From the NCBI GenBank assembly GCA_964435025.1, contig CAYSXL010000002.1:1-34237 (forward strand): a stretch of 34,237 nt of DNA. Reading direction: 5' to 3'. Numbering within the stretch: position 1 is the stretch's first letter; every line of letters starts with the position of its first letter. The translations under genes were made by a program, and so were the position numbers. This stretch comes from an uncultured Candidatus Saccharibacteria bacterium (GTDB lineage Bacteria > Patescibacteriota > Minisyncoccia > Minisyncoccales > PWPS01). The notes under the pieces were generated by a model. That model was not told where the DNA came from. It searched no databases and saw only the letters and a program-made list of their open reading frames with translations. Positions 17,670 through 31,231 of the stretch are shown one piece after another.

Positions 17670-18938
17670 ATGCCTAAAAAATTCAAAACCCCAAGCGGAA
17701 TGCACGATATTTTCGGTAATTATTATAATTATCTGGAAAAAGTCAGGAATATTGCTTGTAAAACCGCCAAAGACTACGGTTTTGGGGGCATCGAAACACC
17801 GATAATAGAAGATACGGAAGTTTTCACCCGCGGGGTCGGAGAGGAAACCGATATTGTGGAAAAGGAGATGTACACTTTTAAAACAAAGGGAAATGATAAG
17901 GTTTCTTTGAGGCCCGAGGGCACCGCTCCGGTGATGCGTGCTTACATACAGCACAATCTTTATACCAGTCCCCAGCCGGTCAAGTTTTTTTACTTTGCTC
18001 CTTTTTTTAGGTATGAAAGACCGCAGGCGGGAAGATACAGGCAGTTTTGGCAGTTTGGATTGGAGTCTATCGGAAAGGGAGGGCCTATCGTTGACGCGCA
18101 AATAATCAAGGCTGTACACAGCATCTTTAAGGAGATGGGTATCGAAACGGTGGTCTCGATAAATAACATGGGAGACGCGAAGTGCCGTGAAGACTTTAAA
18201 AAGAGCCTTAAAAAGTACTTAAAGAAAGAAGCATCCTCGCTTTGTAGTGATTGCAAGAGGAGAATGAAGAAAAATCCTTTGCGTGTACTTGATTGTAAGA
18301 AATGTGTCAAGATAAAGGAAAATGCGCCTCAAATAGTAGATTATATATGCAAGAAGTGTTGCGAAGACTTTAAAAGTGTTTTAGAATTCCTGGAGGAAGT
18401 AGGGGTTCCTTATGATCTTGATCCTTTTTTAGTGCGCGGTTTTGATTATTATACGGGGACTGTTTATGAATTTTTTACAAAGGCAAAGGAAAATGAAGAA
18501 CCACTTGCACTCGGAGGAGGTGGAAGATATGACGGGCTCAGTACTATGCTTGGAGACGAAGAAAGACCTGCTACCGGCGTAGCAATAGGTATAGAAAGAC
18601 TTATTCTCGCTATGAAAGAAAACGGGGTTAGCGCCAAAGAGGAAAATCCGCAGGTTTTTATTGCTCAACTCGGTGACTTGGCGAAGAAGAAGTCCCTTAG
18701 AATATTTGAAGAACTTAAAGGTGCTAAGGTTTCTGTTGCCGAATCTTTCGGTCAGGATTCTTTAAAGAGTCAAATGAATCGGGCGGACAGGATGGGGGCG
18801 CAAATTACCCTTATTATAGGAAAGGAAGAGGCCGCGGAGGACAGAATGATATTGCGTGATATGGACTCCGGAGAACAAGAAAAAATAAAAACGGAGGATG
18901 CGGTAAAAGAGGTAAAAAAGAGACTTAATAAAAAATAG
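17670..18938 (+). CDS. hisS: Histidyl-tRNA synthetase
   Basis: Class II motifs (GMHDIF, LRPEGTAPVMR, FRYERPQAGRYRQFWQFG, GGGRYDGL) and a C-terminal anticodon-binding domain. Confidence 0.9.
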   Translation: MPKKFKTPSGMHDIFGNYYNYLEKVRNIACKTAKDYGFGGIETPIIEDTEVFTRGVGEETDIVEKEMYTFKTKGNDKVSLRPEGTAPVMRAYIQHNLYTSPQPVKFFYFAPFFRYERPQAGRYRQFWQFGLESIGKGGPIVDAQIIKAVHSIFKEMGIETVVSINNMGDAKCREDFKKSLKKYLKKEASSLCSDCKRRMKKNPLRVLDCKKCVKIKENAPQIVDYICKKCCEDFKSVLEFLEEVGVPYDLDPFLVRGFDYYTGTVYEFFTKAKENEEPLALGGGGRYDGLSTMLGDEERPATGVAIGIERLILAMKENGVSAKEENPQVFIAQLGDLAKKKSLRIFEELKGAKVSVAESFGQDSLKSQMNRADRMGAQITLIIGKEEAAEDRMILRDMDSGEQEKIKTEDAVKEVKKRLNKK

Positions 18939-18966
18939 AATTGCCCTTAAGGTAAGCAAATTTATT

Positions 18967-19302
18967 ATGAAAGATTGTATCTTTTGCAAAATTGTAAGAA
19001 AAGAGATTCCCGCGGATGTGGTTTTAGAAGAAGAGGATATTTTGGTTTTCAGGGACATAAAACCAAAAGCTCCCGTTCATCTTCTTATTATTCCCAAAAA
19101 ACACATCCCTTCCGTGAACGAGGTAAGTGAGGAAGATGAAAGCCTTCTCGGAAGAATGTTTCTTACTGCAAAGAAAGTCGCCAAGAAGGAGGGAGTGGCG
19201 GATTCCGGGTACAAGCTTTCCGTGCATGTGGGAGAAAACGCGGGACAAGAGGTGTTTCATTTACACATTCATTTGATGGGATGGAAACACGTTAACGAAT
19301 GA
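18967..19302 (+). CDS. HIT-family (histidine triad) nucleotide hydrolase
   Basis: CIFCKI near the N-terminus and the histidine triad HLHIHLMG near the C-terminus. Confidence 0.9.
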   Translation: MKDCIFCKIVRKEIPADVVLEEEDILVFRDIKPKAPVHLLIIPKKHIPSVNEVSEEDESLLGRMFLTAKKVAKKEGVADSGYKLSVHVGENAGQEVFHLHIHLMGWKHVNE

Positions 19303-19335
19303 CAGTTGATAATGATAATCAATACCGGGAAAATA

Positions 19336-19470
19336 CGAAATCCGAAATTAGAAATCCGAAACAAGCACGAAATTAGAAGTTCGAATTTTCCAAACACAAG
19401 GTTTGGGATATTGGGACATTCGATATTCGAATTTGTTTAGAATTTCGATATTATAAATTTCTAATTTAAG
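19336..19470. repeat. Degenerate heptamer (CGAAATY / ATTCGAW) repeat blocks in imperfect inverted arrangement around a small hairpin
   Basis: About 7 tandem CGAAATY-like heptads (19336-19389). Hairpin CCAAAC-ACAAG-GTTTGG (19390-19406). Then ATTCGAW-like heptads run to 19470. AAATTAGAAAT (19345-19355) is complementary to ATTTCTAATTT (19457-19467). Confidence 0.6.
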
Positions 19471-19476
19471 CAAATT

Positions 19477-19692
19477 ATGGCTTTAGAAGTAAAAAGAAAA
19501 GAAAAAGAAAATAATAGTAGCCTAGTACACAGGTTTACTCGTTCTGTTATTCAGAGTGGAATTATCAGAGAGGCGCGTTCAAGACGTTTTCGTGAACGTC
19601 CGCTTAGCGACACTGCAAAGAAGAACAAGGCTTTGAGAAAAATGCGTGCCAAAGCGGAATACGAAAGAAAATGGAAGATGGGAGAGATTTAA
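19477..19692 (+). CDS. rpsU: 30S ribosomal protein S21
   Basis: 71-aa basic protein. VKRKEKE..LVHRFTRSV..GIIREARSRRF.ERP fits the S21 pattern. It is adjacent to ybeY, as in many bacteria. Confidence 0.8.
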   Translation: MALEVKRKEKENNSSLVHRFTRSVIQSGIIREARSRRFRERPLSDTAKKNKALRKMRAKAEYERKWKMGEI

Positions 19693-19731
19693 AAACTTAC
19701 AAATACTCTCCTTTAGAAGTTTTATGGCACA

Positions 19732-20172
19732 ATGTGTTCCGGTAAAAATTGTTGTCAAAAATTAGGTGGTGAAGATTTCGGTGGAGTAAACAATCTTACC
19801 TCTTTTGAAATTGACAGGGAGAAATTGCTGGAAACGGCAAAGAATGTGCTAAAAAACGAAGGCGCAAAAGGAAGGATTGATTTCGCGCTCGTGGGGAAAA
19901 AAGAAATAAAAGAGCTTAACAGAACTTACAGGGGTAAAGACCACGCAACGGACGTTCTTTCTTTTTTTTATAATGAAAAAGATTTTTTAGGAGAGGTTGT
20001 GCTTTGCCCTCAAAAAATAGAAGAAAATGCGGGAGAGAGTGGATTTAAAAAGGAGCTCTTTCGTGTTGCCGTGCACGGAATACTTCATATTTTAGGGTAT
20101 GACCACACGAAAAGCGAAAAAGAGGAAAAAGCGATGAAAAAGAGAACGGAAAGCTATATCGAAGAAATTTGA
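19732..20172 (+). CDS. ybeY: rRNA maturation endoribonuclease YbeY
   Basis: LNRTYRGKDHATDVLSF and the metal-binding HGILHILGYDH motif. Confidence 0.85.
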   Translation: MCSGKNCCQKLGGEDFGGVNNLTSFEIDREKLLETAKNVLKNEGAKGRIDFALVGKKEIKELNRTYRGKDHATDVLSFFYNEKDFLGEVVLCPQKIEENAGESGFKKELFRVAVHGILHILGYDHTKSEKEEKAMKKRTESYIEEI

Positions 20173-20274
20173 AAATAATTTTTAAAAAGGTAGAATGGTA
20201 TTAGTATAAAAAATAACCGAATTTTGATAACCGTTTGATAAAAGATCAAACAGGTAATCGGATTTCTTAGAAAG

Positions 20275-21486
20275 TTGAGTAAGACTCCCACAATTGCCGC
20301 TGTAGATGTAGGGACTGGGAATATAAAAGCAATAATTGTCCAGAAACAGCCCGAGGAAGCGGGTTATAAGGTTTTAGGGAAGGCCGAAAATATTGCTTCG
20401 GGAGTTCGCAAAGGAGTTGTTAGTAATCCGGATAGAGTGGGGAAAATAATCCAAGAAACGGTAGCCGAAGCAAAGAGAGAGGCCGGACACGAAATAGATG
20501 ATGTATACGCGAACTTAAATGGAGCGCATATATTTTCTCTCTCCTCCAAGGGGCTTATTTCCGTTTCACGGGCCGACCAAGAGATAGCCCAAGAAGATGT
20601 CGACAGAGTGATAGACGCCGCGAAAACGTTCTCACTTCCCGCAAACAAAGAGATTTTGGAGATTATTCCACGGGAATTTATTATTGACAAAGAGAGGGGA
20701 ATCAAGAGCCCCGTGGGTCTTCACGGTGTAAGGTTGGAAACGGAAATTCTTGCTATTGGAGGATTTGTTTCTTATTCGAGAAACTTAAGCCAGGCGATAC
20801 TAAACGGTAACTTGCAAGTAGACGATCTTATTATAAGTCCTATTGCCACCGCAAGGGCGATACTCACCGTAGAAGAAAAAGAGCTTGGTGTTTTGGTTGT
20901 CGATATTGGTGCCGGGACTACGGAAATATCCGTTTTTGAAGAGGGTGATCTCTTGCATATTGCGGTGCTTCCCGTGGGAACCAATAATGTTCGTAATGAT
21001 ATTGCTATCGGTCTCAGGGTGGATATAGAAACGGCGGAATTTATCAAAAACAAATACGGGGAATCCATTTTGGGAGAAAAGAGCACTAAGAAAGAGAAAC
21101 TAAAATCTCCTGCAGGAGAGGATGTCGTTTTCAAAAGAGGAGATTTAAAAAAAATAGCCGAACCGAGAATGGCGGAAATATTCGAAGAGATAGAGAAAGA
21201 ACTCAAGAGAATATCCAGAAACAAACTTCTTCCCGCGGGGATTGTGGTTACGGGAGGAGGGGCAAAAATCCCGGGTATAGTGGATTTTGGTAGAAAAAAA
21301 CTTGGTCTTCCTTGTCGTGTGGGAACGCCCAGAAGATTTTTCCCACCTGTAGAAGATCCGTCTTTCTCCACGCTTTGCGGTCTTGTTCTCTGCGGTATGG
21401 ATTTGGAGGAAGAAGAGGAGGAGAAATTTAATATTAAAGGAATTTGGGGAAAGATTAAAAAAATATTTAGAATTTTTATACCATGA
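20275..21486 (+). CDS. ftsA: Cell division protein FtsA (TTG start)
   Basis: Actin-fold motifs (AAVDVGTGNIKAIIV, VVDIGAGTTEISVF, VVTGGGAKIPG). C-terminal amphipathic helix GIWGKIKKIFRIF. Confidence 0.9.
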   Translation: MSKTPTIAAVDVGTGNIKAIIVQKQPEEAGYKVLGKAENIASGVRKGVVSNPDRVGKIIQETVAEAKREAGHEIDDVYANLNGAHIFSLSSKGLISVSRADQEIAQEDVDRVIDAAKTFSLPANKEILEIIPREFIIDKERGIKSPVGLHGVRLETEILAIGGFVSYSRNLSQAILNGNLQVDDLIISPIATARAILTVEEKELGVLVVDIGAGTTEISVFEEGDLLHIAVLPVGTNNVRNDIAIGLRVDIETAEFIKNKYGESILGEKSTKKEKLKSPAGEDVVFKRGDLKKIAEPRMAEIFEEIEKELKRISRNKLLPAGIVVTGGGAKIPGIVDFGRKKLGLPCRVGTPRRFFPPVEDPSFSTLCGLVLCGMDLEEEEEEKFNIKGIWGKIKKIFRIFIP

Positions 21487-22415
21487 CAAAAGGATTGCCA
21501 AAGATAAAGGTGGTCGGTATAGGTGGTTCAGGAGGTAATGCCATCTCCAGGATGGCAGGGTGTGGCATACGCGGGGTGGAACTTATAACTATCAATACGG
21601 ACTTTCAGGACTTAAAGGACTCCAAAGGAGATGTCAAGATTCGCGTAGGAAAGAAACTTACCGAAGGTTTGGGTACGGGAATGAACCCGGAAATGGGCAA
21701 GAAGGCCGCGGAGGAAAACAGGGAAGAAATTGCAAAAGCGCTCAAGGATTCCGATATGGTTTTTTTAACTTGCGGTCTCGGAGGGGGAACGGGGACGGGA
21801 GCACTTCCCGTAATAGCCGAGATTGCCAAAGAAACAGGCGCGCTTACCATTGCCGTGGTTACGACACCTTTTTCTTTCGAAGGGAAAGAAAGGAGTAAAG
21901 TGGCGCGTAAAGGGTTAAAAGAAGTACAGGATAAAGTCGATACGCTTATCCCTATTTCCAACGACAAGCTTCTCTCTACACTCGACCCCAATGTCTCTTT
22001 ACTGCAGGCTTTCTGGGAGTGTGACGAAATATTAAGGCAAGCCGTCCAGGGGATATCCGATCTTATAACTCTTCCGGGAATTATCAACATAGATTTTGCG
22101 GACGTAAAATCCATCATGAAGAATTCGGGCTCGGCTCTTTTCGGAAAAGGAAAAGCAAAAGGTAAAAAACGGGCGGAAGAGGCTGCGCTTCGCGCGCTCA
22201 ATCTTCCTTTGGTGGACCTCTCTTGCGAAAATGCGAAGGGCGTGTTATTTAATGTCAATGGAGGTAATGACCTTAGCCTATCGGAAGTCGATGAGATAGC
22301 CCAAGTAATTAAAAAGAGAGTTTCCCCGAATGCAAGCATTATTTTCGGAGCGGTAGAAGATGATGACTTAGAAGAAGGGGAGATTAAAGTTACCGTAATC
22401 GCTACCGGGTTTTAG
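21483..22415 (+). CDS. ftsZ: Cell division GTPase FtsZ, globular domain only
   Basis: GIGGSGGNA and the tubulin signature GGGTGTGA. It ends at ..KVTVIATGF with a TAG stop. Its ATG overlaps the ftsA stop (ATGA). Confidence 0.9.
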   Translation: MTKGLPKIKVVGIGGSGGNAISRMAGCGIRGVELITINTDFQDLKDSKGDVKIRVGKKLTEGLGTGMNPEMGKKAAEENREEIAKALKDSDMVFLTCGLGGGTGTGALPVIAEIAKETGALTIAVVTTPFSFEGKERSKVARKGLKEVQDKVDTLIPISNDKLLSTLDPNVSLLQAFWECDEILRQAVQGISDLITLPGIINIDFADVKSIMKNSGSALFGKGKAKGKKRAEEAALRALNLPLVDLSCENAKGVLFNVNGGNDLSLSEVDEIAQVIKKRVSPNASIIFGAVEDDDLEEGEIKVTVIATGF

Positions 22416-22446
22416 AGCACTTTTTTGACGAAAGAGAACTTCTAAG

Positions 22447-22469
22447 ATATGTTCATTTAATGAACATAT
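22447..22469. promoter_or_regulatory. 10-3-10 perfect palindrome between ftsZ and nrdD (weak terminator or operator)
   Basis: ATATGTTCAT-TTA-ATGAACATAT followed by TATTTTTG. The stem is AT-rich, with only 2 G-C pairs. Confidence 0.4.
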
Positions 22470-22502
22470 TATTTTTGCTAATTCATCTAAAGAAAATAGA
22501 AA

Positions 22503-25500
22503 ATGATATCCAAGGTTGAAAAAAGAAACGGAGAAATCGTACCTTTTAACAAAGAGAAAATAGAAAAAGCTATTTATAAGGCCGTAACCTTTACCAAAGA
22601 GGAAGACGGTGAAAAGGCGGCGGATGTTTCCGACAAAGTATTTGATCTTCTCCTGAGGAGGTTTAGCAGCGAAGAAACCCCGCACGTTGAAGAAATACAG
22701 GATATCGTAGAAGAGGTTCTTATCATGGAAGGACTTGTAGAGACCGCTCGCAGCTATATCCTCTACAGAGAAAAAAGAAGGGAAATAAGAGAAACGGTAT
22801 CGGAATTTGATGAATCTACGGAACTTATTGAAAAGTATATTGGCGAGATCGATTGGCAAATAAAGGAAAATGCCAATATGACCTACTCCCTACAAGGACT
22901 GAACCAGTATACGACATCTCATATATCCAAAAAGTACTGGCTTAATAAAATTTATCCCGAAAGAGTAAGAGAAGCGGCAAAAAACCAAGACTTTCATATT
23001 CACGACTTAAATTTACTGGCTACCTATACTTTTTTCGGAAGAGAAGTGCTTCCCGTGAAGCTCTCCGGAGAAATCAAGCTTGTTTCTTTCCAGGATCTTT
23101 ATGAGTTTGTTGATGCAAGGGAAGTTTTGTTAAACGAGAAGGATCAGGCCTTTGCCAAATATCCCGAAGATCTCCGTGTGCTTGACAGAGGGGGATGGAC
23201 CGAAGTGAAAAGGTTAGTGAAAAAGAAAAAGGAGAGGAAAATGAGATTCCTCAAGTCGGAACAAGGACGAAGTGTGATAGTTACCGATAACCACCCTTTT
23301 ATTATAAAGGAAGATGAAAAGGGGGAGGAAAAGGAAATAAGAAGCCAAGATGTGAAGAAGGGAGAACACTTGATGGAGAGTGTAAATATTCCAAATCTTG
23401 TGGAAAAGGAAGGAATTTTTCAAAAGGATTTCGTATATGTAGCAGAGGAGCTTTTAAGGAGCGGCGTTAATGAATTCTTCTTGGAAGGACTCGACAGAAG
23501 GGAATTTATGGAAAAATGGAATGGCAGGACAGATGTGGAAGGGACCGTCAGTGTTTCCAATTCGGCAAACGGAATGGATAACAAGTTGGAGCTTACGGAG
23601 AACTTTGGGTATCTTGTGGGAATGTTCATTGCTGAGGGTAGTTATGATCATGAGAGAGTGGTCATTACCACGGGAGAAGCAAAAATCATAGAAAGAATAA
23701 GACGAACTTGTCATGAATTTGGTTTGAGATGTTATGAAGGGGACAAGAAAGAAGGAAGTGCGAAGAATATTTCCATCAATTCTGCCACTTTTAAACTTCT
23801 ATTTGAAAAAGTTTTTTGCATAAAAGGAAAAAGCAAGAACAAAAATATTCCCCCGAATATTCTCAGTTATAATATTGACTTTGCCAAAGGATTAGTAGCG
23901 GGGGTCATAGACGGAGACGGCACCGTATCTCCCTTTGATGATTCGCACAAGAATAGCCAGATTCTCATAAGAGTTTCTTCGAGGACTATGCTGGAGCAAT
24001 TGGCCGTTCTTCTGCAAATCTTTGGCATAGTACCGCGGGACAGAACAGAGGGCCTGGGAAGCAAAAGAGAGTTTAACGGAAGAGGGATAGAACAAAATTA
24101 CCCTTTGTACGGCTTAAGTTTCTCAAAAAGAGAGAATGTTGATATTCCTTCCTTTAAGTACAGAGGGGGAAGCGTGGCTCGGAAGTCGTGGGGAGCGGAT
24201 GGTTACGGGTGGAACAAAGTATTAAGCAACGAAGAGACGGAGATATACGAGGAATGGATATACGATATTACTACGGAGTCCGGAACTTTGGTGTGTAATG
24301 GTGTTCTGGTTCATAACTGCTGTGGATGGGATCTACAAGACCTTTTGTTGCGCGGTTTTGGCGGGGTATCCTCCAAAGTGGAATCCAAGCCTCCCAAACA
24401 CCTAAGACCCGCTCTCGGGCAGATAGTAAATTTCTTCTTCACACTCCAGGGAGAATGCTATTCGGAGGATACACAAGTCTTAACAAAAGATGGATGGAAA
24501 TATTTTTATGAGGTCTCTAAAAAAGACAAGGTTTTTACGCTTAAAAATGAAACGGGAGAAGTGGAGTTGCAAAAACCTGTTAAATTTTACGAGTTTGACC
24601 ATGAAGGAGAACTTTATAACTTTAAATCCAAAAAACTCGATTTACTGGTTACGCCGAACCATAATATGATTGTGGACCAATACAATCCCGAGCTCTTGAG
24701 TGAAAACTATAAGCGCAAGTTTGTAAAAGCGAAGGATTTTAATCCGAGCACACATTTTATTCCCAAGCAAGCTATTTGGAAAGGAAAGAAAGAAGAGTAC
24801 TTTACTCTTCCCGCTGTGCAAATAATAAAGTACAGCGGATATACCGGAAGGTATAGAAAGGAAAAACTAAAAGAAAAGGAAATACCGATGAGCAAATGGA
24901 TTCCTTTCTTTGGATTTTGGTTGGCTGAGGGTTGTACGTCTTTGCAAAAAAGAAAAAGGAAGGATAGAAACAAGCCGTACTACGAGTATCAAATAAGAAT
25001 TACTCAAAATGAAGGAAAAAACGCCGAGGAATTTAAGAGAGTACTTGAAAGATTACCCTTTCCCTATCTAACAAAGAAAGCAGGAAAGAAGCTGGAGTTT
25101 TGCATTTGGAGCAAGCAGCTTTTCTCTTATTTACGGAGATTTGGTGCATCGGGAGAAAAATTTGTCCCTGAGGAAATAAAGGGGCTGGAGAAGAATCATC
25201 TTTCCTCTCTTTTAGGCTGGATGATGAAAGGGGATGGTTATGAGGGGAATGGAAACATTGAATACTATACGAAAAGCGAGAAGTTAGCAAATGATGTGCA
25301 AGAAGTTATTTTGAAAATAGGCCTCACCGCTAATATTTACAGGAAAAACAAGGGAAAATTTTCTTGGTATAAGGTTTGTAATTCCCGAAGCAAGCACTTC
25401 AGATTATCAAAGGAAAGTGTAAAAAAGGTGGACTACAAGGGAAAGGTTTATTGTTTAGAGGTACCTAATCATACTCTCTATGTCAGAAGAAACGGACGAG

Positions 25501-28500
25501 CTTGTTGGTGTGGAAACTCTGCCGGGGCGCAGGCAATGAGTAATTTTGATACTTTTCTCGCGCCTTTCATAAGAAAGGACAACCTTTCCTATAAACAAGT
25601 AAAGCAAGCCGTCCAGGAATTCGCCTTTAATTGTATGGTTCCCACTCGTGTAGGATTTCAGTGCCTTTCGGAAGACACAGAGATACTTACTAAAAAAGGG
25701 TGGAAGAAACACAACGAAGTCAGAAAAGGGGATATAATAAAAACTTTCAATACGGAGAAAGGAGTTATTGAAGAGAAAAAGATAAAGAAGGTTTTCAGCA
25801 GAGAGTACGAAGGAAAGATGTATAACTTGGTAAACAGAGTCCAAGATCAACTTATCTCTCCCGGGCACAGGGTAGTAAGAAAGAAGTTTAATAGTGAAAA
25901 GTACTGTCTTGAAGAGATAGAAAAAACAAAGACCCTAAAATCTCCTCAAGCAATACCCGTAGGGGCAAGTAACTTAAACAAGGAAATCGGGCTCAGTGAC
26001 GAGGAAATTAAACTTGTTGCCTTTGTTCTTTCGGAAGGAAGTTTAGAAAAGAAAGGAAGTTGGAGAAAGGTAATGATTTACCAGTCAAAGAAAAAAAACA
26101 AGGAAAAATATGAAGAAATAATATCCTTACTTGATATATTGGGGGTAGATTATACTCTGCAGAAAGGATCTAAGTCACTTGGAGATACTGTTATTCAAAT
26201 TAAGTTTAACGCCGAAAACTCAAAAAAGGTTCTTCGCCTTTTTGACAGAGACGATAATGTAAAAGTTGTTCCCGAGAGAATATTGGAGATGAGCGGGAGA
26301 CAAAGCAAGGTGTTTATCGAAACCTACATTAAAGGGGATGGACATGGAAATTGTAAAATTACCGTTTCTGACAAAAAGATACTTGAAGATTTGCAGAGAA
26401 TTGTTGTAAATGCCGGTTACGGGTTTACGGTGGCAAGCAGAAGGTCTTCAGGGGCGGAAAACAAGACGCTCTACACTTTGAGAATTATAAGGCATAAAGA
26501 AACTTATATAAGAGAGATAAAGGAAGTTAATTACAAAGGAATTATCTGGTCGGTTAACACGGAGAATGAAACGGTTGTGGCAAAGAGGAAAGAAAAAGTT
26601 TTCATAACCGGGAATACGCCCTTTATAAATATATCTCTTGATGTAAAGGTGCCCGAATTCCTTAAAGATCAACCGGTAATGATAGGAGGTGAACTTCAAA
26701 AAGAAACTTACGGGGACTTTCAAAAGGAGATGGATCTCTTTAATAGCGCTTTTTACGAGGTACTTATGGAAGGAGATGCAAAAGGAAGAGTTTTTACCTT
26801 TCCTATTCCGACTATTTCTATTGCCAAAGACTTTGACTGGGATAATAAATCTCTCGACAAGATGTGGGAAGCGACGGCAAAGTACGGGATAAACTACTTT
26901 TCCAACTTTGTACAATCCGACATGAACCCCGAGGACTTTAGGAGCATGTGTCCTCTCGGAGGAAATGAAAAAGTTTTAATTAAATCAAGCAGAGGTCGTG
27001 GAGTAGAGTATTCGCGAATTCGGTGGATCTATGAAGGGAACCATAGTGAAAAAGACTATTGGATTTACAGCAACGGAAAGTTTGTGAAAGGGAAGTTCAA
27101 CAAGTTTGAAAACCAAGAGATGATCAGGGTGACTTTGTTTAACAATCACAAGATTGAAATGAGCAAGAACCACTTGAACTTTATAATGGAAGATGAAGAA
27201 TCTAGAGAGAAAGTATTAAAAGGAGAGGAATTGGAAGAGGGAATGTATCTTCCTTATTCTTTAAAATCCTTTGAAGGAAAGGGAGGTAATCGGGAATTGG
27301 GATATTTCGTGGGAGCTTATGCCGGAGATGGTAGTTTTGACGGAGAGACCAGTGTAATTTTTTCACTAAACGAGGATCAAAAAGAATCCGTAGCTAAAAA
27401 ACTGCAGGATATTGCCGAAAAGTATTTTGGAGCTCATTCCTCTCTCCAAAAACAAAACTCCGGAGACTCGCTATTGACGCTTAAAATACATTCCAAGGCG
27501 GCGGTTGGTTTCTGTAAAGACTTTGTAAAGGATGAGAAAAGAGAAAAACAATATAGTGCAAGACTTTTCGGTATGAGCAAAGATTTCCGCCAAGGGGTGG
27601 TTAAAGGGCATTATGCGACGGACGGAGGAAATAGGAATAGAATTTACACTTCTTCTCATGAAATGGTGGAGACACTGAATATGTTGGCGGCGACACTTGG
27701 CACTACCACCGCTGTTTATAAAGATGAAAGAGAGGGAAGATTGGAGAAAGGAGCCAATTATGCCGTTTTGTTCTATCAACTAAACAAAGAAAAGCTGGAA
27801 GATTTCTGGTTTAAGAAGAATGAAAAACTATGGATAAAAATTAAATCTATTGAAAGTATTTCCGATTCTGCGGCCTACTGTTTCGAAGTTGAGAATGATG
27901 AACCCGTTTTCACTGTCGGTACTACGGGTATATTAACTCACAACTGCAGACTTAGGCTCGATAATAAGGAGCTTATAAAGCGAGGTGGTGGCCTTTTCGG
28001 GTCACAACCCCTCACAGGGAGCATTGGCGTAGTTACTATCAACATGCCTCGCATAGGATATCTCTCCAAGACAAGAAAAGAATTTTTCGGCAGATTGGAG
28101 GAAATGATGGATATTGCAAAAGAAAGCCTGGAAATAAAAAGAAAAGTTTTGGACAATTTTATAGAAAAAGGCCTTTATCCTTATACGAGGAATTATCTTT
28201 CTTCGGTCAAAAAACTCAGAGGATCTTATTTTGGAAACCACTTCTCTACCATAGGTCTTATTGGGATGAACGAAACCACGCTCAACTTTCTTGGAGAAGA
28301 CATCGGTTCGAAAAAAGGAAGGGCTTTTGCCTTGGAGGTGCTCAATTTTATGAGAGAAAAACTTGTAGCGTACCAAGAGCAAACGGGATATCTCTATAAC
28401 TTGGAAGCTACTCCCGGAGAAGGAGCTTCCTTTAGGCAAGCGAGAGTGGATAGAGAGAAGTATCCCGATATTATTACCGCGGGCACGAAGGACGCCCCCT

Positions 28501-28817
28501 ACTATACCAATTCCGTGCACCTCCCTGTAAATTACACGGACGACCCCTTTGAAGCATTGGATCTTCAGGATGACCTGCAACAGAGCTTTACGGGCGGAAC
28601 GGTGTTGCATTTGTTTTTAGGTGAGAGGATAAATACTCCCGAAGCGGCAAAAAACCTTGTAAGAAAAGTTTTTGAAAATTATCACCTTCCTTACATAACC
28701 CTTACTCCCACCTTTTCAATTTGCCCGAAATGTGGTTATCTTAAAGGAGAGCAAACTTACTGTCCAAATTGTAAGATTAAAGCGCCTAAAAAAGTAATTA
28801 AAAAGTTTAAAGAATAA
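22503..28817 (+). CDS. nrdD: Anaerobic (class III) ribonucleoside-triphosphate reductase large chain. It has an ATP-cone, is interrupted by four inteins, and lacks the glycyl-radical loop.
   Basis: ATP-cone (KVEKRNGEIVPFNKEKIEKAIYKA). NrdD extein motifs FHIHDL, CCGWDL, GE/SAGAQA, GFQ/TPFINI and RSM/CRLRLD. Also EATPGEG and the C-terminal Zn ribbon CPKCG-x8-CPNC. Exteins total 670 aa (nt 22503-23027, 24318-24455, 25518-25661, 26616-26948, 27945-28814). Confidence 0.9.
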   Translation: MISKVEKRNGEIVPFNKEKIEKAIYKAVTFTKEEDGEKAADVSDKVFDLLLRRFSSEETPHVEEIQDIVEEVLIMEGLVETARSYILYREKRREIRETVSEFDESTELIEKYIGEIDWQIKENANMTYSLQGLNQYTTSHISKKYWLNKIYPERVREAAKNQDFHIHDLNLLATYTFFGREVLPVKLSGEIKLVSFQDLYEFVDAREVLLNEKDQAFAKYPEDLRVLDRGGWTEVKRLVKKKKERKMRFLKSEQGRSVIVTDNHPFIIKEDEKGEEKEIRSQDVKKGEHLMESVNIPNLVEKEGIFQKDFVYVAEELLRSGVNEFFLEGLDRREFMEKWNGRTDVEGTVSVSNSANGMDNKLELTENFGYLVGMFIAEGSYDHERVVITTGEAKIIERIRRTCHEFGLRCYEGDKKEGSAKNISINSATFKLLFEKVFCIKGKSKNKNIPPNILSYNIDFAKGLVAGVIDGDGTVSPFDDSHKNSQILIRVSSRTMLEQLAVLLQIFGIVPRDRTEGLGSKREFNGRGIEQNYPLYGLSFSKRENVDIPSFKYRGGSVARKSWGADGYGWNKVLSNEETEIYEEWIYDITTESGTLVCNGVLVHNCCGWDLQDLLLRGFGGVSSKVESKPPKHLRPALGQIVNFFFTLQGECYSEDTQVLTKDGWKYFYEVSKKDKVFTLKNETGEVELQKPVKFYEFDHEGELYNFKSKKLDLLVTPNHNMIVDQYNPELLSENYKRKFVKAKDFNPSTHFIPKQAIWKGKKEEYFTLPAVQIIKYSGYTGRYRKEKLKEKEIPMSKWIPFFGFWLAEGCTSLQKRKRKDRNKPYYEYQIRITQNEGKNAEEFKRVLERLPFPYLTKKAGKKLEFCIWSKQLFSYLRRFGASGEKFVPEEIKGLEKNHLSSLLGWMMKGDGYEGNGNIEYYTKSEKLANDVQEVILKIGLTANIYRKNKGKFSWYKVCNSRSKHFRLSKESVKKVDYKGKVYCLEVPNHTLYVRRNGRACWCGNSAGAQAMSNFDTFLAPFIRKDNLSYKQVKQAVQEFAFNCMVPTRVGFQCLSEDTEILTKKGWKKHNEVRKGDIIKTFNTEKGVIEEKKIKKVFSREYEGKMYNLVNRVQDQLISPGHRVVRKKFNSEKYCLEEIEKTKTLKSPQAIPVGASNLNKEIGLSDEEIKLVAFVLSEGSLEKKGSWRKVMIYQSKKKNKEKYEEIISLLDILGVDYTLQKGSKSLGDTVIQIKFNAENSKKVLRLFDRDDNVKVVPERILEMSGRQSKVFIETYIKGDGHGNCKITVSDKKILEDLQRIVVNAGYGFTVASRRSSGAENKTLYTLRIIRHKETYIREIKEVNYKGIIWSVNTENETVVAKRKEKVFITGNTPFINISLDVKVPEFLKDQPVMIGGELQKETYGDFQKEMDLFNSAFYEVLMEGDAKGRVFTFPIPTISIAKDFDWDNKSLDKMWEATAKYGINYFSNFVQSDMNPEDFRSMCPLGGNEKVLIKSSRGRGVEYSRIRWIYEGNHSEKDYWIYSNGKFVKGKFNKFENQEMIRVTLFNNHKIEMSKNHLNFIMEDEESREKVLKGEELEEGMYLPYSLKSFEGKGGNRELGYFVGAYAGDGSFDGETSVIFSLNEDQKESVAKKLQDIAEKYFGAHSSLQKQNSGDSLLTLKIHSKAAVGFCKDFVKDEKREKQYSARLFGMSKDFRQGVVKGHYATDGGNRNRIYTSSHEMVETLNMLAATLGTTTAVYKDEREGRLEKGANYAVLFYQLNKEKLEDFWFKKNEKLWIKIKSIESISDSAAYCFEVENDEPVFTVGTTGILTHNCRLRLDNKELIKRGGGLFGSQPLTGSIGVVTINMPRIGYLSKTRKEFFGRLEEMMDIAKESLEIKRKVLDNFIEKGLYPYTRNYLSSVKKLRGSYFGNHFSTIGLIGMNETTLNFLGEDIGSKKGRAFALEVLNFMREKLVAYQEQTGYLYNLEATPGEGASFRQARVDREKYPDIITAGTKDAPYYTNSVHLPVNYTDDPFEALDLQDDLQQSFTGGTVLHLFLGERINTPEAAKNLVRKVFENYHLPYITLTPTFSICPKCGYLKGEQTYCPNCKIKAPKKVIKKFKE
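23028..24317 (+). mobile_element. Intein 1 (430 aa) with a LAGLIDADG homing-endonuclease domain
   Basis: It sits between the conserved extein residues ..HIHDLNLLATY and CCGWDL. Block B is VIVTDNHPF. LAGLIDADG motifs are FGYLVGMFIAEGS and LVAGVIDGDGT. The C-terminus is VLVHN followed by +1 Cys. The N-terminal residue appears to be Thr (TFFGREVLPV), so that boundary is less certain. Confidence 0.75.
24456..25517 (+). mobile_element. Intein 2 (354 aa) with a LAGLIDADG domain
   Basis: Block A is CYSEDTQVLTKDGW and block B is LLVTPNHNM. LAGLIDADG motifs are FFGFWLAEGC and LLGWMMKGDGY. It ends ..ACWCGN with +1 Ser. Removal restores TLQGE-SAGAQA. Confidence 0.85.
25662..26615 (+). mobile_element. 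Intein 3 (318 aa) with a LAGLIDADG domain
   Basis: Block A is CLSEDTEILTKKGW and block B is LISPGHRVV. LAGLIDADG motifs are LVAFVLSEGS and FIETYIKGDGHG. It ends ..VFITGN with +1 Thr. Removal restores RVGFQ-TPFINI. Confidence 0.85.
26949..27944 (+). mobile_element. Intein 4 (332 aa) with a LAGLIDADG domain
   Basis: It starts CPLGGNEKVLIK and block B is EMSKNHLNF. LAGLIDADG motifs are LGYFVGAYAGDGS and VVKGHYATDGG. It ends ..GILTHN with +1 Cys. Removal restores DFRSM-CRLRLD. Confidence 0.85.
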
Positions 28818-28821
28818 AAAT

Positions 28822-29133
28822 ATGGAAAAAAATATATTTAAAACTAAGGAAAAAGCGCTCGATAAAGGGAAGTGCTTCGACTGTGAGAAAGAGGTCAGCA
28901 TAAACGAAGAGGAAATAGAAAACGGCTCTTTACTGGTATACGAAGATGGAGGAGAGGATGTTTTTGTTTTGAAATGCGATGATTGCCTAAAAAATAGCGA
29001 AGAGATATCCGAATATCAAAGATGTGAAATATACTCTCGTATTGTCGGATACCTCCGTCCCGTAAATCAATGGAATGCCGGAAAAAGGCAGGAATACAGC
29101 GAAAGAAAGGAGTATAAAGTTCCCGAAAAATAG
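28822..29133 (+). CDS. Free-standing NrdD C-terminal module: Zn ribbon plus glycyl-radical loop (103 aa)
   Basis: CFDC-x30-CDDC, then EIYSRIVGYLRPVNQWNAGKRQEYSERKEY, which is the NrdD RxxGY glycyl-radical signature (Gly76 at nt 29047-29049). The ATG lies 4 nt after the nrdD stop, in the +1 frame. nrdG follows 5 nt later. Confidence 0.8.
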   Translation: MEKNIFKTKEKALDKGKCFDCEKEVSINEEEIENGSLLVYEDGGEDVFVLKCDDCLKNSEEISEYQRCEIYSRIVGYLRPVNQWNAGKRQEYSERKEYKVPEK

Positions 29134-29138
29134 TATCC

Positions 29139-29834
29139 GTGAAAATAGGAGGCCTACAAAAGTTTACTCTTATCGATTATCCGGAGAAGATTGCTTGCAC
29201 GGTTTTCTTGTCGGGATGTAATTTTAGGTGTCCTTGGTGTTATTCTCCGGAACTTGTTCTTCCCGAGGAGATAGAAAGAAATCGGGGAATTGATAAAGAG
29301 GACTTTTTCTCTTTTCTGAGAAAAAGAAAAGGAAGACTGGAAGGGGTGGTAATTTGCGGAGGGGAGCCGACAATCCACAAAGACCTTTTCCCGTTTATAA
29401 AAGAAATAAGAAAAGAAGGTTTTCCGGTTAAAATCGATACGAACGGCTCTTATCCGGAAGTACTGGAAGAGCTTATAAAAGAGAGTCTTATTGATTATAT
29501 TGCTATGGATGTAAAGCTTTCTCCCGAGAATTACGGCAAGATTACGGGGGAGGAAAATTATGCGGGGAAAATAAAAAAAAGCATAAAACTCTTATTGGAG
29601 GATAGAGTCAATTATGAATTTAGGACAACGCTTGTTCCCGGGGTCCATGATATAAAAGAGGTTAAAGAGATAGGAGAAGAGATAAAAGGGGCAAAAAGAT
29701 ATTTTCTGCAAAACTTTTTACCCGAAAAGAATATGGAAAAGAGTTTTCTTAAAGAAAAGCCCTTTACCAAAGAAGAGCTTGAAGAGTTTAAAAAAGCGGC
29801 AAATCCTTTCGTAAAAATGTGCGAAATAAGATAA
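29139..29834 (+). CDS. nrdG: Anaerobic RNR activating enzyme (radical SAM), GTG start
   Basis: FTLIDYPEKIACTVFLSGCNFRCPWCYSPE (CxxxCxxC cluster motif) and the VVICGGEPT SAM-binding motif. The position after nrdD supports the call. Confidence 0.9.
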   Translation: MKIGGLQKFTLIDYPEKIACTVFLSGCNFRCPWCYSPELVLPEEIERNRGIDKEDFFSFLRKRKGRLEGVVICGGEPTIHKDLFPFIKEIRKEGFPVKIDTNGSYPEVLEELIKESLIDYIAMDVKLSPENYGKITGEENYAGKIKKSIKLLLEDRVNYEFRTTLVPGVHDIKEVKEIGEEIKGAKRYFLQNFLPEKNMEKSFLKEKPFTKEELEEFKKAANPFVKMCEIR

Positions 29835-31231
29835 AAATCTCCCGAATAGCGTTATTTACTCTCCTATCTTTTATTTTAGGAATATTTTTTGCCCCGATAA
29901 GTATTATCTCGGGTCTTTTTTTTGTCTCTCTTTTTTATATCTTTCTCAAAGATCGCACAGTTACCGTTTTTTGTCTGGTTTTTTTCCTTGCGGGCTCATT
30001 TTATTTTTTAAATAGCTTTTATCAGATTCCGTCTTCTTTAGAATCTCCTGTAATCGGGAAAATTACGGAAGAACCTCTCTATAAAGAAAATAGTGCGAGG
30101 ATTGTATTAGAGCGCAAGGAAGGGAAGATGCTCTTATATACGGATACTCTTGTAGCTTACGAATACGGGGATGTGCTTATGGTGGACGGGGATTTTGTAA
30201 GCCCGGAGAAGGGTTCTTATGCAAATTATTTAATGAAAGAGGGGATTTATCACACCTCCTTTTATCCTGAAATGGAGAAAATAGGAAGTGAGCGAAATTT
30301 CTTTAATAAAGCGTTGCAAAATTTCAGAGGTGGCTTAAAAAACACAATAAGAAAAGCAGTTCCCGCTCCGGAATCCTTTTTACTTGAAGCGGTTGTGCTC
30401 GGAGACCGAAGCTCTTTCCCTTCCGAGCTTGATGAGATGCTTAGCATTTCCGGAACGCGTCATATTACCGCTATATCGGGGATGCACATAATTATTATAT
30501 CTTCCGCTCTTTTCTTTTTATTTTCTTTTCTTGGGGTTTTGAGAAGACACGCCGCGCTTTTATCTCTGTTTTGTATTTTTCTTTTTGTAATTTTTATCGG
30601 AGCTCCGGCTTCGGCAGTGAGGGCGGGAGTCATGGGAGGGTTGTTGCTTCTTTCCTATTTTTATTTTCGTGAAACAGTGTCAAAGCGTTTGATAGTTTTT
30701 GCCGCGGCTGTGATGCTTGCTTTCAACCCTTTCCTTTTGCATTTTGATCTCGGATTTCAGCTTTCTTTCTTGGCGGTAACAGGTATTGCTTTTTTACAGG
30801 GACCGGTAAAAGCGCTTTTATGCGGTAATGATTTTTTAAGAAAAAAAGAAAAATTGGCCGATATTTTGGCGGTTACGTTATCGGCGCAACTGTTTGTTTT
30901 TCCTCTTATTTTATACAATTTCGGCCACATTCCTCTTTTTTCCGTTTTTACCAATATCCTTATTGTCCCGCTTCTTCCTTTTGTTATGGTATTCGGATTT
31001 CTTACCGCTCTTACCGGGGCTTTTATTTTTTCTTTCCCCGCATATCTTCTGCTTTCTTTTATCCTCTTGGTGGTAGAAACGGTGGCAGGGCTTCCTTTTG
31101 CGGCAGTTTACCTGGAAAAAGTCCCTCTTTATTTCGTAATTTTTCTTTACGGGCTGATAATTTACAAGACACTACAACTCTCAAACACTCTTCCTTTTTT
31201 TCGAAAAGCTAACACCGAAAGCGGTTTTTAG
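29819..31231 (+). CDS. comEC: ComEC/Rec2-family DNA internalisation channel (DUF4131 plus competence domain, no MBL domain), GTG start
   Basis: Polytopic protein. An OB-like N-terminal region (GKITEEP...VLERKEG..LLY) is followed by LSISGTRHITAISGMHI and other competence-domain-type motifs. It overlaps the nrdG end by 16 nt. Confidence 0.8.
   Translation: MRNKIKISRIALFTLLSFILGIFFAPISIISGLFFVSLFYIFLKDRTVTVFCLVFFLAGSFYFLNSFYQIPSSLESPVIGKITEEPLYKENSARIVLERKEGKMLLYTDTLVAYEYGDVLMVDGDFVSPEKGSYANYLMKEGIYHTSFYPEMEKIGSERNFFNKALQNFRGGLKNTIRKAVPAPESFLLEAVVLGDRSSFPSELDEMLSISGTRHITAISGMHIIIISSALFFLFSFLGVLRRHAALLSLFCIFLFVIFIGAPASAVRAGVMGGLLLLSYFYFRETVSKRLIVFAAAVMLAFNPFLLHFDLGFQLSFLAVTGIAFLQGPVKALLCGNDFLRKKEKLADILAVTLSAQLFVFPLILYNFGHIPLFSVFTNILIVPLLPFVMVFGFLTALTGAFIFSFPAYLLLSFILLVVETVAGLPFAAVYLEKVPLYFVIFLYGLIIYKTLQLSNTLPFFRKANTESGF

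Follow-up and report, generated by a model that had tools for sequence, protein, structure and literature searches.

To our knowledge, every characterised glycyl-radical enzyme bears the radical glycine on its catalytic chain. Oxygen destroys glycyl radicals, cleaving the chain at the glycine, and the sole exception in spirit to the single-chain rule is GrcA (YfiD) of Escherichia coli, which repairs oxygen-cleaved pyruvate formate-lyase (PFL); like Y06I of phage T4, it is a small stand-alone copy of the C-terminal glycyl-radical domain of an enzyme. The class III ribonucleotide reductases (RNRs) from phage T4, E. coli, Thermotoga maritima (4COI/4U3E) and Prevotella copri (8P23) follow the single-chain rule, with the catalytic subunit NrdD and its activase NrdG encoded by adjacent genes. 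Here we describe a locus of an uncultured Candidatus Saccharibacteria bacterium with the same domains in the same order and nrdG adjacent, in which, unlike in the canonical enzymes, the NrdD chain is broken between its zinc ribbon and its glycyl-radical loop, the loop being encoded by a separate open reading frame (ORF) of 103 amino acids (aa). The locus lies in a stretch of 34,237 nt of contig CAYSXL010000002.1, referred to below as the window, which covers only part of the genome.

The precedent for a glycyl-radical domain that acts in trans is provided by GrcA (PMC8683613). Andorfer et al. (2021) recognise only YfiD and T4 Y06I as validated spare parts, while speculating that other glycyl-radical enzymes may have them too, and a 2026 review (PMC13450708) knows spare-part proteins for formate lyases only. 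A different precedent comes from RNR genes in pieces. NrdJa/NrdJb of Pseudomonas aeruginosa and of Thermus phage phiYS40, and NrdA-a/NrdA-b of Aeromonas phage Aeh1, are likewise encoded by two adjacent ORFs, and in the cases studied the pieces assemble non-covalently into an active enzyme, as cited in PMC3653736 and PMC9669993. Those enzymes belong to class I or class II and are divided inside the core or close to it, a homing-endonuclease gene being responsible in Aeh1. The other split RNR genes reported are intron or intein interruptions and fragmented phage nrdD genes, and the split phage nrdD genes on record are all intron, intein or fragmentation cases, not examples of a separated radical domain. 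Large RNR phylogenies have dropped sequences of less than 400 aa, so that small chains would be missed by them. No description of a split NrdD of the present kind, or of an NrdD spare part, was found in the open-access full-text literature, to which the search was confined; this agrees with an earlier note on the window, made from the sequence alone, whose writer was not aware of any such arrangement.

Division of nrdD between two reading frames

The large ORF of the window ends in ...FSICPKCGYLKGEQTYCPNCKIKAPKKVIKKFKE followed by TAA at 28815-28817, 14 residues past its Cys4 zinc ribbon. This ORF, which contains four inteins (Table 1), matches NF006126 with 909 bits (cut-off 548), coverage reaching position 650 of 684; it also matches TIGR02487 with 433 bits (cut-off 326) and, in a Pfam scan, PF13597 and PF03477. 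It carries an ATP-cone, a catalytic barrel, a probable finger-loop Cys motif and the zinc ribbon, the last of which aligns to the zinc-ribbon region of the NrdD structures 9D3X, 8P23 and 4COI. A motif scan of the 671-aa spliced extein revealed no R..GY glycyl-radical motif, and the only R..GY in the unspliced precursor, RELGY at residue 1596, falls within the LAGLIDADG-type block of intein 4, so that the large chain lacks the RxxGY loop which class III RNRs bear on the same polypeptide.

That loop is found on the next ORF, which opens with its own ATG at 28822, 4 nt past the large-ORF stop, and closes with its own stop at 29131-29133. Its product contains a Cys4 motif of the form C18xxC21-x30-C52xxC55 and then the loop sequence C68-EIYSRIVGYLRPVNQWNAGKRQEYSERKEY, which includes R73-I-V-G76-Y77; in being a small stand-alone protein with a glycyl-radical domain (RxVGY), it resembles GrcA. 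It matches PF13597 over positions 521-562 of 562 (E 7e-11). The Pfam scan gave PF13597 only, and NCBIfam gave NrdD models only, with no match to a PFL-type glycine-radical domain. In a profile search the two ORFs together tile NF006126, the large one covering positions 1-650 of 684 and the small one 648-683, which is the pattern expected of two adjacent ORFs in a genes-in-pieces RNR, and on alignment to T. maritima NrdD (4COI) the large chain extends to residue 609 and the small chain covers 612-644. The nrdG product downstream matches the NrdG2 model TIGR02495 at 1.5e-61 with 207 bits (cut-off 131), and its translation shows the radical-SAM motif CxxxCxxC as CNFRCPWC.

The earlier note had placed the nrdD stop just past the zinc ribbon, had seen no radical loop in the large chain, and had assigned the loop and a second ribbon to the following ORF, with nrdG adjoining it. 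All of this is borne out by the scans and alignments above, as is its expectation that on NrdD models the large ORF would end before the loop and the small ORF would cover it. It had also described the frame of the small ORF, which is +1 relative to the large ORF, as closed upstream by an in-frame TAA; such a stop exists, at 28795-28797 rather than at 28798-28800.

The division into two genes is, with virtual certainty, genuine and maintained by selection. The junction is A-rich, and loss of one nucleotide within 28798-28815 would fuse the frames, so an indel in the stretch 28786-28821 might falsely have split a continuous nrdD. However, the exact small protein is present on at least 11 contigs, and in eight of these, which come from various samples and assemblers, the 110-nt junction is the same in every case, while over the surrounding 1.6 kb five of the eight assemblies differ from the window by 2-8 single-nucleotide polymorphisms (the other three are identical). 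The fusing indel that the earlier note had considered is thereby excluded. The closest homologues in related genomes, where the note had proposed to look for the same split, are themselves split, not contiguous: in five Patescibacteria loci (L001, L008, L090, L173 and L174) an nrdD that lacks the loop is followed by the small gene and nrdG, and the small proteins share 58-65% identity with the one encoded in the window. The split falls at the same place in all five, but with differing frames and junction structures: L001 and L174 have a 4-nt ATGA overlap, in L008 the small gene begins right behind the stop without a change of frame, and gaps of 22 nt and 38 nt are present in L090 and L173, respectively. 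In addition, more than 130 clusters of stand-alone homologues have come from gene callers, and the probability that the split is an artefact is negligible. The divergent junctions of the five relatives speak with equal force against a conserved recoding signal. The host gene already holds four inteins and the two ORFs are separated by only 4 nt in an A-rich context, which would suit their being joined after transcription by programmed frameshifting, by read-through or by protein trans-splicing through a split intein, and yet such joining is very improbable. No one recoding mechanism can cover a +1 frame, an in-frame stop, an ATGA overlap and gaps of 22-38 nt, the relatives collectively using all three relative frames; and joining is unneeded where the small protein occurs as an orphan or beside a full-length NrdD, as described below. 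Frameshift recoding was also considered for the window itself and rejected, the A-rich junction having no zero-frame slippery heptamer leading into the small-ORF frame. As to trans-splicing, C68 is preceded by R in the window and by K, P, E or Q in the homologues, never by Asn or His-Asn; the residues flanking C68 are thus unfit for an intein, and the 14-aa Lys-rich tail of the large chain has neither N-intein features nor an intein block, so this route is rejected as unlikely. No mobile element (homing endonuclease or intron) was found at the break, where the spacing is 4 nt in the window and from -4 to 38 nt in the relatives.

The other side of the break is conserved as well. The Lys-rich tail that replaces the glycyl-radical domain of the large chain has counterparts in the other split loci, whose large chains end, each before a stop codon, in RIKAPKKVVKKIN (L008), VIKSPKKVIK (L001), KIKAPKKTIKNLKDYRSR (L090), KINKPKKVIKK (L174) and KIKEPKERFRKIK (L173), giving the pattern IK-x-PKK-V/T-I/V-K... 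across these loci. This likeness marks the tail as a retained feature, not as the product of random decay.

A family of small ribbon-and-loop proteins

The family to which the small protein belongs is large. A word-indexed search retrieved 133 homologous clusters, nearly all of them stand-alone and 56-121 aa long, and an exhaustive profile search retrieved 768 clusters (50% identity, E<=1e-10), the best 150 of which all measure 42-159 aa. No dedicated model for this family was found in Pfam, NCBIfam or PHROGs, the last giving only weak matches, to the C-terminus of the NrdD large-subunit family phrog_487. Across 41 aligned members, down to 38% identity, the residues C18, D20, C21, C52, C55, E69, Y71, R73, V75, G76, Y77, R79, P80, K88, E91 and R95 are invariant. 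The loop of the window's small chain shares 61-76% identity with cis loops in contiguous Patescibacteria NrdDs, compared with 57-68% for the remainder of the enzyme against L042, which indicates that the trans loop is conserved in the same way as cis loops.

Sequence comparison is consistent with descent of the small protein from the C-terminal module of NrdD. In profile alignments the second CxxC knuckle and the loop are both matched to the corresponding part of NrdD, the knuckle falling on the second one of the NrdD ribbon, and an hhalign alignment of the small family with the C-termini of contiguous NrdDs reaches this second knuckle and not the first. In a phmmer search of the Protein Data Bank (PDB) with the small chain, 4COI residues 612-644 were matched only marginally (E 0.95); the top match there, a designed TIM barrel, was judged spurious. 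AlphaFold2 predicts residues 1-60 to be a beta-hairpin zinc ribbon with a predicted local distance difference test score (pLDDT) of 77-87. A Foldseek search of the PDB with this model returned nothing significant, the best hits being small ribosomal proteins at E 0.55, and so carries no information on the origin of the N-terminal domain.

Gene contexts were compared for the 80 best loci, taking one genome per species, together with the loci obtained by exact protein look-up. Besides the five split loci named above, a minimal kind of split, in which a small chain of 59-70 aa without a ribbon accompanies a loop-less NrdD, occurs in Micrarchaeota (L005-L007, L083 and L084) and in Chloroflexota/Anaerolineae (L075 and L086), and these splits look independent of the window clade. 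The Micrarchaeota large chain ends in ...CPKCDADLMLKKVVK before its stop, resembling the bacterial KKVIK tails. Three further loci were not counted as clean splits: in L066 (Bipolaricaulota), L080 (Saccharicrinis) and L068 (Thermoplasmatales) nrdD looks frameshifted or fragmented towards its C-terminus, where frames overlap or the gene is in several pieces; they may be assembly errors or pseudogenes.

A second type of context is seen in Paceibacterota/Minisyncoccales (L003/L004, L016, L017, L023 and L038), where the small gene stands between nrdG and a gene for a full-length NrdD that retains its own YSRxVGYLR loop. Within each of L003, L016, L017, L023 and L038 the two loop-coding segments are identical at 88-99 of 111 nt, with runs of 54-57 identical bases, and form direct repeats approximately 290-320 nt apart; between loci the loop-coding DNA differs at synonymous sites. 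Identity within a locus combined with synonymous divergence between loci points to gene conversion, from which it follows that both loops must fit the same socket.

In the third type the small gene is an orphan, with neither nrdD nor nrdG in the flanks retrieved (27 loci). Among the orphans of Patescibacteria, L013 (3619-5721) has it in the order Fur-family regulator - small gene - hemerythrin - rubrerythrin - desulfoferrodoxin; partial versions of this oxidative-stress cluster are found in L009-L012, L014 and L175, and in Smithellaceae (L035) the small gene follows that for rubrerythrin. This suggests that orphan small genes are induced by oxygen stress. Two orphan genomes have a complete nrdD-nrdG pair elsewhere, on a separate contig (L012 with L048, and L013 with L053), so that a complete parent enzyme coexists with the small protein, as it does for GrcA, both in these genomes and in L003, L016, L017, L023 and L038; the window differs, its own large chain being loop-less. 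The likeness to GrcA drawn in the earlier note fits these findings, since the family occurs also beside full-length NrdDs and in oxidative-stress clusters.

The order FtsA-FtsZ-nrdD-(small)-nrdG-ComEC is common to Patescibacteria loci of the contiguous, duplicated and split types, which identifies them as states of one orthologous locus. In a crude neighbour-joining tree the split-type small proteins form one clade beside Patescibacteria orphans. We infer that a stand-alone copy of ribbon plus loop first arose as a spare part, that such a copy was then inserted between nrdD and nrdG, and that in the lineage of the window the large chain subsequently lost its own loop.

Viruses also carry the family. 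Full-length orphan copies were found on approximately 45 IMG/VR contigs and minimal copies on more, the viral minimal versions measuring 41-70 aa. The viral orphans L110 and L100 lie in replication and nucleotide-metabolism modules with primase, nucleotidyltransferase, helicase and thymidylate synthase genes. In L110, on a 137-kb IMG/VR contig (4869-5285 and 8276-9133), a radical-SAM gene lies approximately 3 kb downstream, whose likeness to NrdG was not detectable by BLAST. The contig of P0092 also holds Mtd_N and YopX genes. The virus ANMV-1 (KP703175.1; L172, 3881-4315) has, near its prohead protease gene, a 145-aa coding sequence of the small family, AJP62049.1, which is annotated 'anaerobic ribonucleoside triphosphate reductase' and is a ribbon-plus-loop ORF, not a reductase. 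In P0117 (112 aa, from a contig of 1550 nt) an L24/KOW ribosomal N-terminus (PF17136, PF00467) is fused to the loop CPKCGKKCEIYSRIVGYLRPV...; this fusion may be either genuine or a product of chimeric assembly.

Taken as a whole, these proteins appear rather likely to constitute an undescribed family of autonomous NrdD-type glycyl-radical proteins, the first spare parts outside the formate lyases, with loop loss in the window clade making the radical subunit obligate there. So understood, the family comprises a zinc ribbon plus glycyl loop in approximately 90-120 aa, along with minimal forms of 41-70 aa, and is spread over Patescibacteria, Desulfobacterales/Syntrophales, ANME-1, DPANN archaea and their viruses; independent loop loss in Micrarchaeota and Chloroflexota, with minimal forms, is included.

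A proposed two-chain enzyme

The favoured interpretation, which we hold to be probable, is that the window and its relatives encode an evolutionarily fixed two-chain class III RNR with the radical on the small chain. The large chain would supply the ATP-cone, the barrel with the Cys finger loop and a zinc ribbon. NrdG would most likely abstract the hydrogen atom from Gly76 of the small chain, acting on it either free or docked; the activated small chain would dock on the large chain, its residues ~66-100 filling the socket in the barrel that is occupied elsewhere by the C-terminus in cis, and the docked Gly76 radical would then generate the catalytic thiyl radical in the large chain. The roles of the barrel and finger loop, of Gly76 and of the activase are assigned by homology. 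That NrdG activates the small chain and that this chain then docks in trans are proposed on the strength of the conservation of the loop, the gene conversion in duplicated loci and the GrcA precedent. Cleavage at the glycine by oxygen would then require replacement of the small chain only. A widespread spare part akin to GrcA might thus have become indispensable once the large chain of the Patescibacteria clade lost its loop; on the basis of the 34-kb window we infer, as the earlier note did, that the small chain is obligatory for this NrdD. The zinc-site cysteines of T4 and E. coli NrdD are needed for radical generation, which would explain why the mobile module has a ribbon of its own.

The comparison with GrcA/YfiD is close in several respects. 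Activation would come from the radical-SAM activase of the parent enzyme, phage-encoded versions exist, and among the relatives of the window protein some occur alongside a complete parent enzyme and some adjoin oxygen-stress genes. The parent is, however, a class III RNR instead of PFL; the window protein has its own Cys4 zinc ribbon where YfiD has a disordered N-terminus; and in place of a repair part it would be an obligate subunit, given a loop-less large chain. Compared with the genes-in-pieces RNRs, the split concerns a class III enzyme, isolates the radical cofactor itself and shows no mobile element where the chain is broken; the small piece, unlike the pieces of those enzymes, has an independent existence as a gene family. 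Compared with canonical NrdD, the loop piece carries a second zinc ribbon and the large piece ends in a Lys-rich tail. The spare-part concept and genes-in-pieces RNRs are therefore known already; the novelty lies in extending them to class III RNR, in a module with its own ribbon and, most of all, in the obligate form proposed here.

Two other interpretations of the split enzyme deserve consideration. The truncated large chain might be decaying, persisting as a home for inteins, while the small protein serves as a spare for a complete NrdD encoded outside the window, a scenario to which the coexistence of other family members with complete NrdDs, and the partial coverage of the genome, lend some colour. 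It is nevertheless unlikely: the 671-aa extein is collinear with intein-less homologues, free of internal stops, and scores 909 bits on an equivalog model; six loci share the point of truncation and the Lys-rich tail; and the locus occupies the syntenic position of the sole nrdD seen in related genomes. Inteins, moreover, are not known to persist in genes whose products are dispensable. Quite unlikely, too, is a role for the small protein as a regulator or decoy, titrating NrdG or storing the radical, with the truncated NrdD drawing on some other radical source. The minimal viral versions could serve as decoys, yet the loop and its flanking helix are conserved like the cis loops that fit the barrel, gene conversion in duplicated loci holds the loop of the small gene to that of the neighbouring NrdD, and we know of no other radical generator for a class III RNR.

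Several points weigh against the two-chain enzyme proposed here. AlphaFold2, given the small chain alone, assigns the glycyl loop a low pLDDT of 54-64, although this would be expected of a segment that becomes ordered only within the barrel. The proposal does not account for the zinc ribbon and Lys-rich tail that the large chain has kept; a docking role for them opposite an acidic patch that the small chain has at residues 28-46 is a speculation, as are the stoichiometry and exchange of the small chain. The exact point at which intein 4 leaves the finger loop is ambiguous, so that the large chain is only presumed to be catalytically competent. Finally, a second complete nrdD might lie beyond the 34 kb visible.

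Features of the locus and their wider meaning

The features of the locus are collected in Table 1.

Table 1. Coordinates of the nrdD-small gene-nrdG locus in the window (slashes mark splice junctions)
Feature	Position	Strand	Description	Basis
nrdD large chain	22503..28817	+	2104-aa precursor, 671 aa without four inteins	profile matches
Intein 1	23028..24317	+	aa 176-605, between ...LLATY and CCGWDL	gap relative to L173, L001
Intein 2	24456..25517	+	aa 652-1005, CYSEDTQ...CWCGN/S	alignment to intein-less homologues
Intein 3	25662..26615	+	aa 1054-1371, CLSEDTE...FITGN/T	alignment to intein-less homologues
Intein 4	26952..27944	+	aa 1484-1814, in catalytic finger loop, RSMC/PLGG...ILTHN/CRLRLD	
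Cys4 zinc ribbon, large chain	28722..28772	+	C2074-P-K-C2077 ... C2087-P-N-C2090	read directly
Lys-rich tail and TAA	28773..28817	+	14-aa KIKAPKKVIKKFKE, replaces glycyl-radical domain	
Small chain	28822..29133	+	103 aa, stand-alone zinc ribbon and glycyl-radical domain	
Zinc ribbon, small chain	28873..28986	+	C18, C21, C52, C55	
Glycyl-radical loop and subsequent helix	29023..29115	+	C68...Y98; candidate radical Gly76 at 29047-29049	
nrdG, radical-SAM activase	29139..29834	+	231 aa, GTG start	TIGR02495 NrdG2 match

The region of intein 1 matches PF14890 and LAGLIDADG_3. By alignment to intein-less homologues (ATY/TFFGRE...VLVHN/CCGWDL) this intein starts with Thr, which is uncommon as an N-terminal intein residue. 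Excision of the 331-aa intein 4 restores collinearity with the sequence RSMCCRLRLD of the intein-less L173 and L001. There is a single Cys upstream of this intein, and MCCR is restored only if the intein begins at Pro, a first residue without the usual nucleophile; an intein beginning at Cys would leave the finger loop one residue short. Among finger-loop inteins elsewhere, L142 has the junction RSMCPLKED, as in the window, L008 and L090 have RSMCLH..., and L133 has the orthodox junction RSMC/CFTGD.

Around the locus (17670-31231) the genes are arranged in the order HisRS - YbeY - FtsA - FtsZ - nrdD - small gene - nrdG - ComEC, an order found whole or in part in many Patescibacteria loci (L003, L008, L090 and the L043-L082 set), so that in this group of Patescibacteria the RNR is tied to a cell-division cluster. 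A terminator scan found no terminator-like sites on the + strand between nrdD, the small gene and nrdG; otherwise the promoter and terminator scan gave signals no better than chance.

If the two-chain enzyme proposed here is correct, it would be the first glycyl-radical enzyme with its radical cofactor on an obligate, dissociable and replaceable subunit. It would provide a natural system for studying how an activase recognises a radical domain, with a 12-kDa substrate tractable by nuclear magnetic resonance (NMR) or cryo-electron microscopy (cryo-EM), and would give insight into the entry and exit of the radical domain at the barrel and into whether such domains pass from one enzyme molecule to another. 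It would also account for the common mis-annotation of small 'NrdD' ORFs in metagenome-assembled genomes and viruses, of which ANMV-1 is an example. The idea of spare-part repair would then reach the synthesis of DNA precursors in strictly anaerobic organisms of minimal genome, and the phage-borne copies suggest that viruses may supply radical domains which sustain the RNR of the host during infection.

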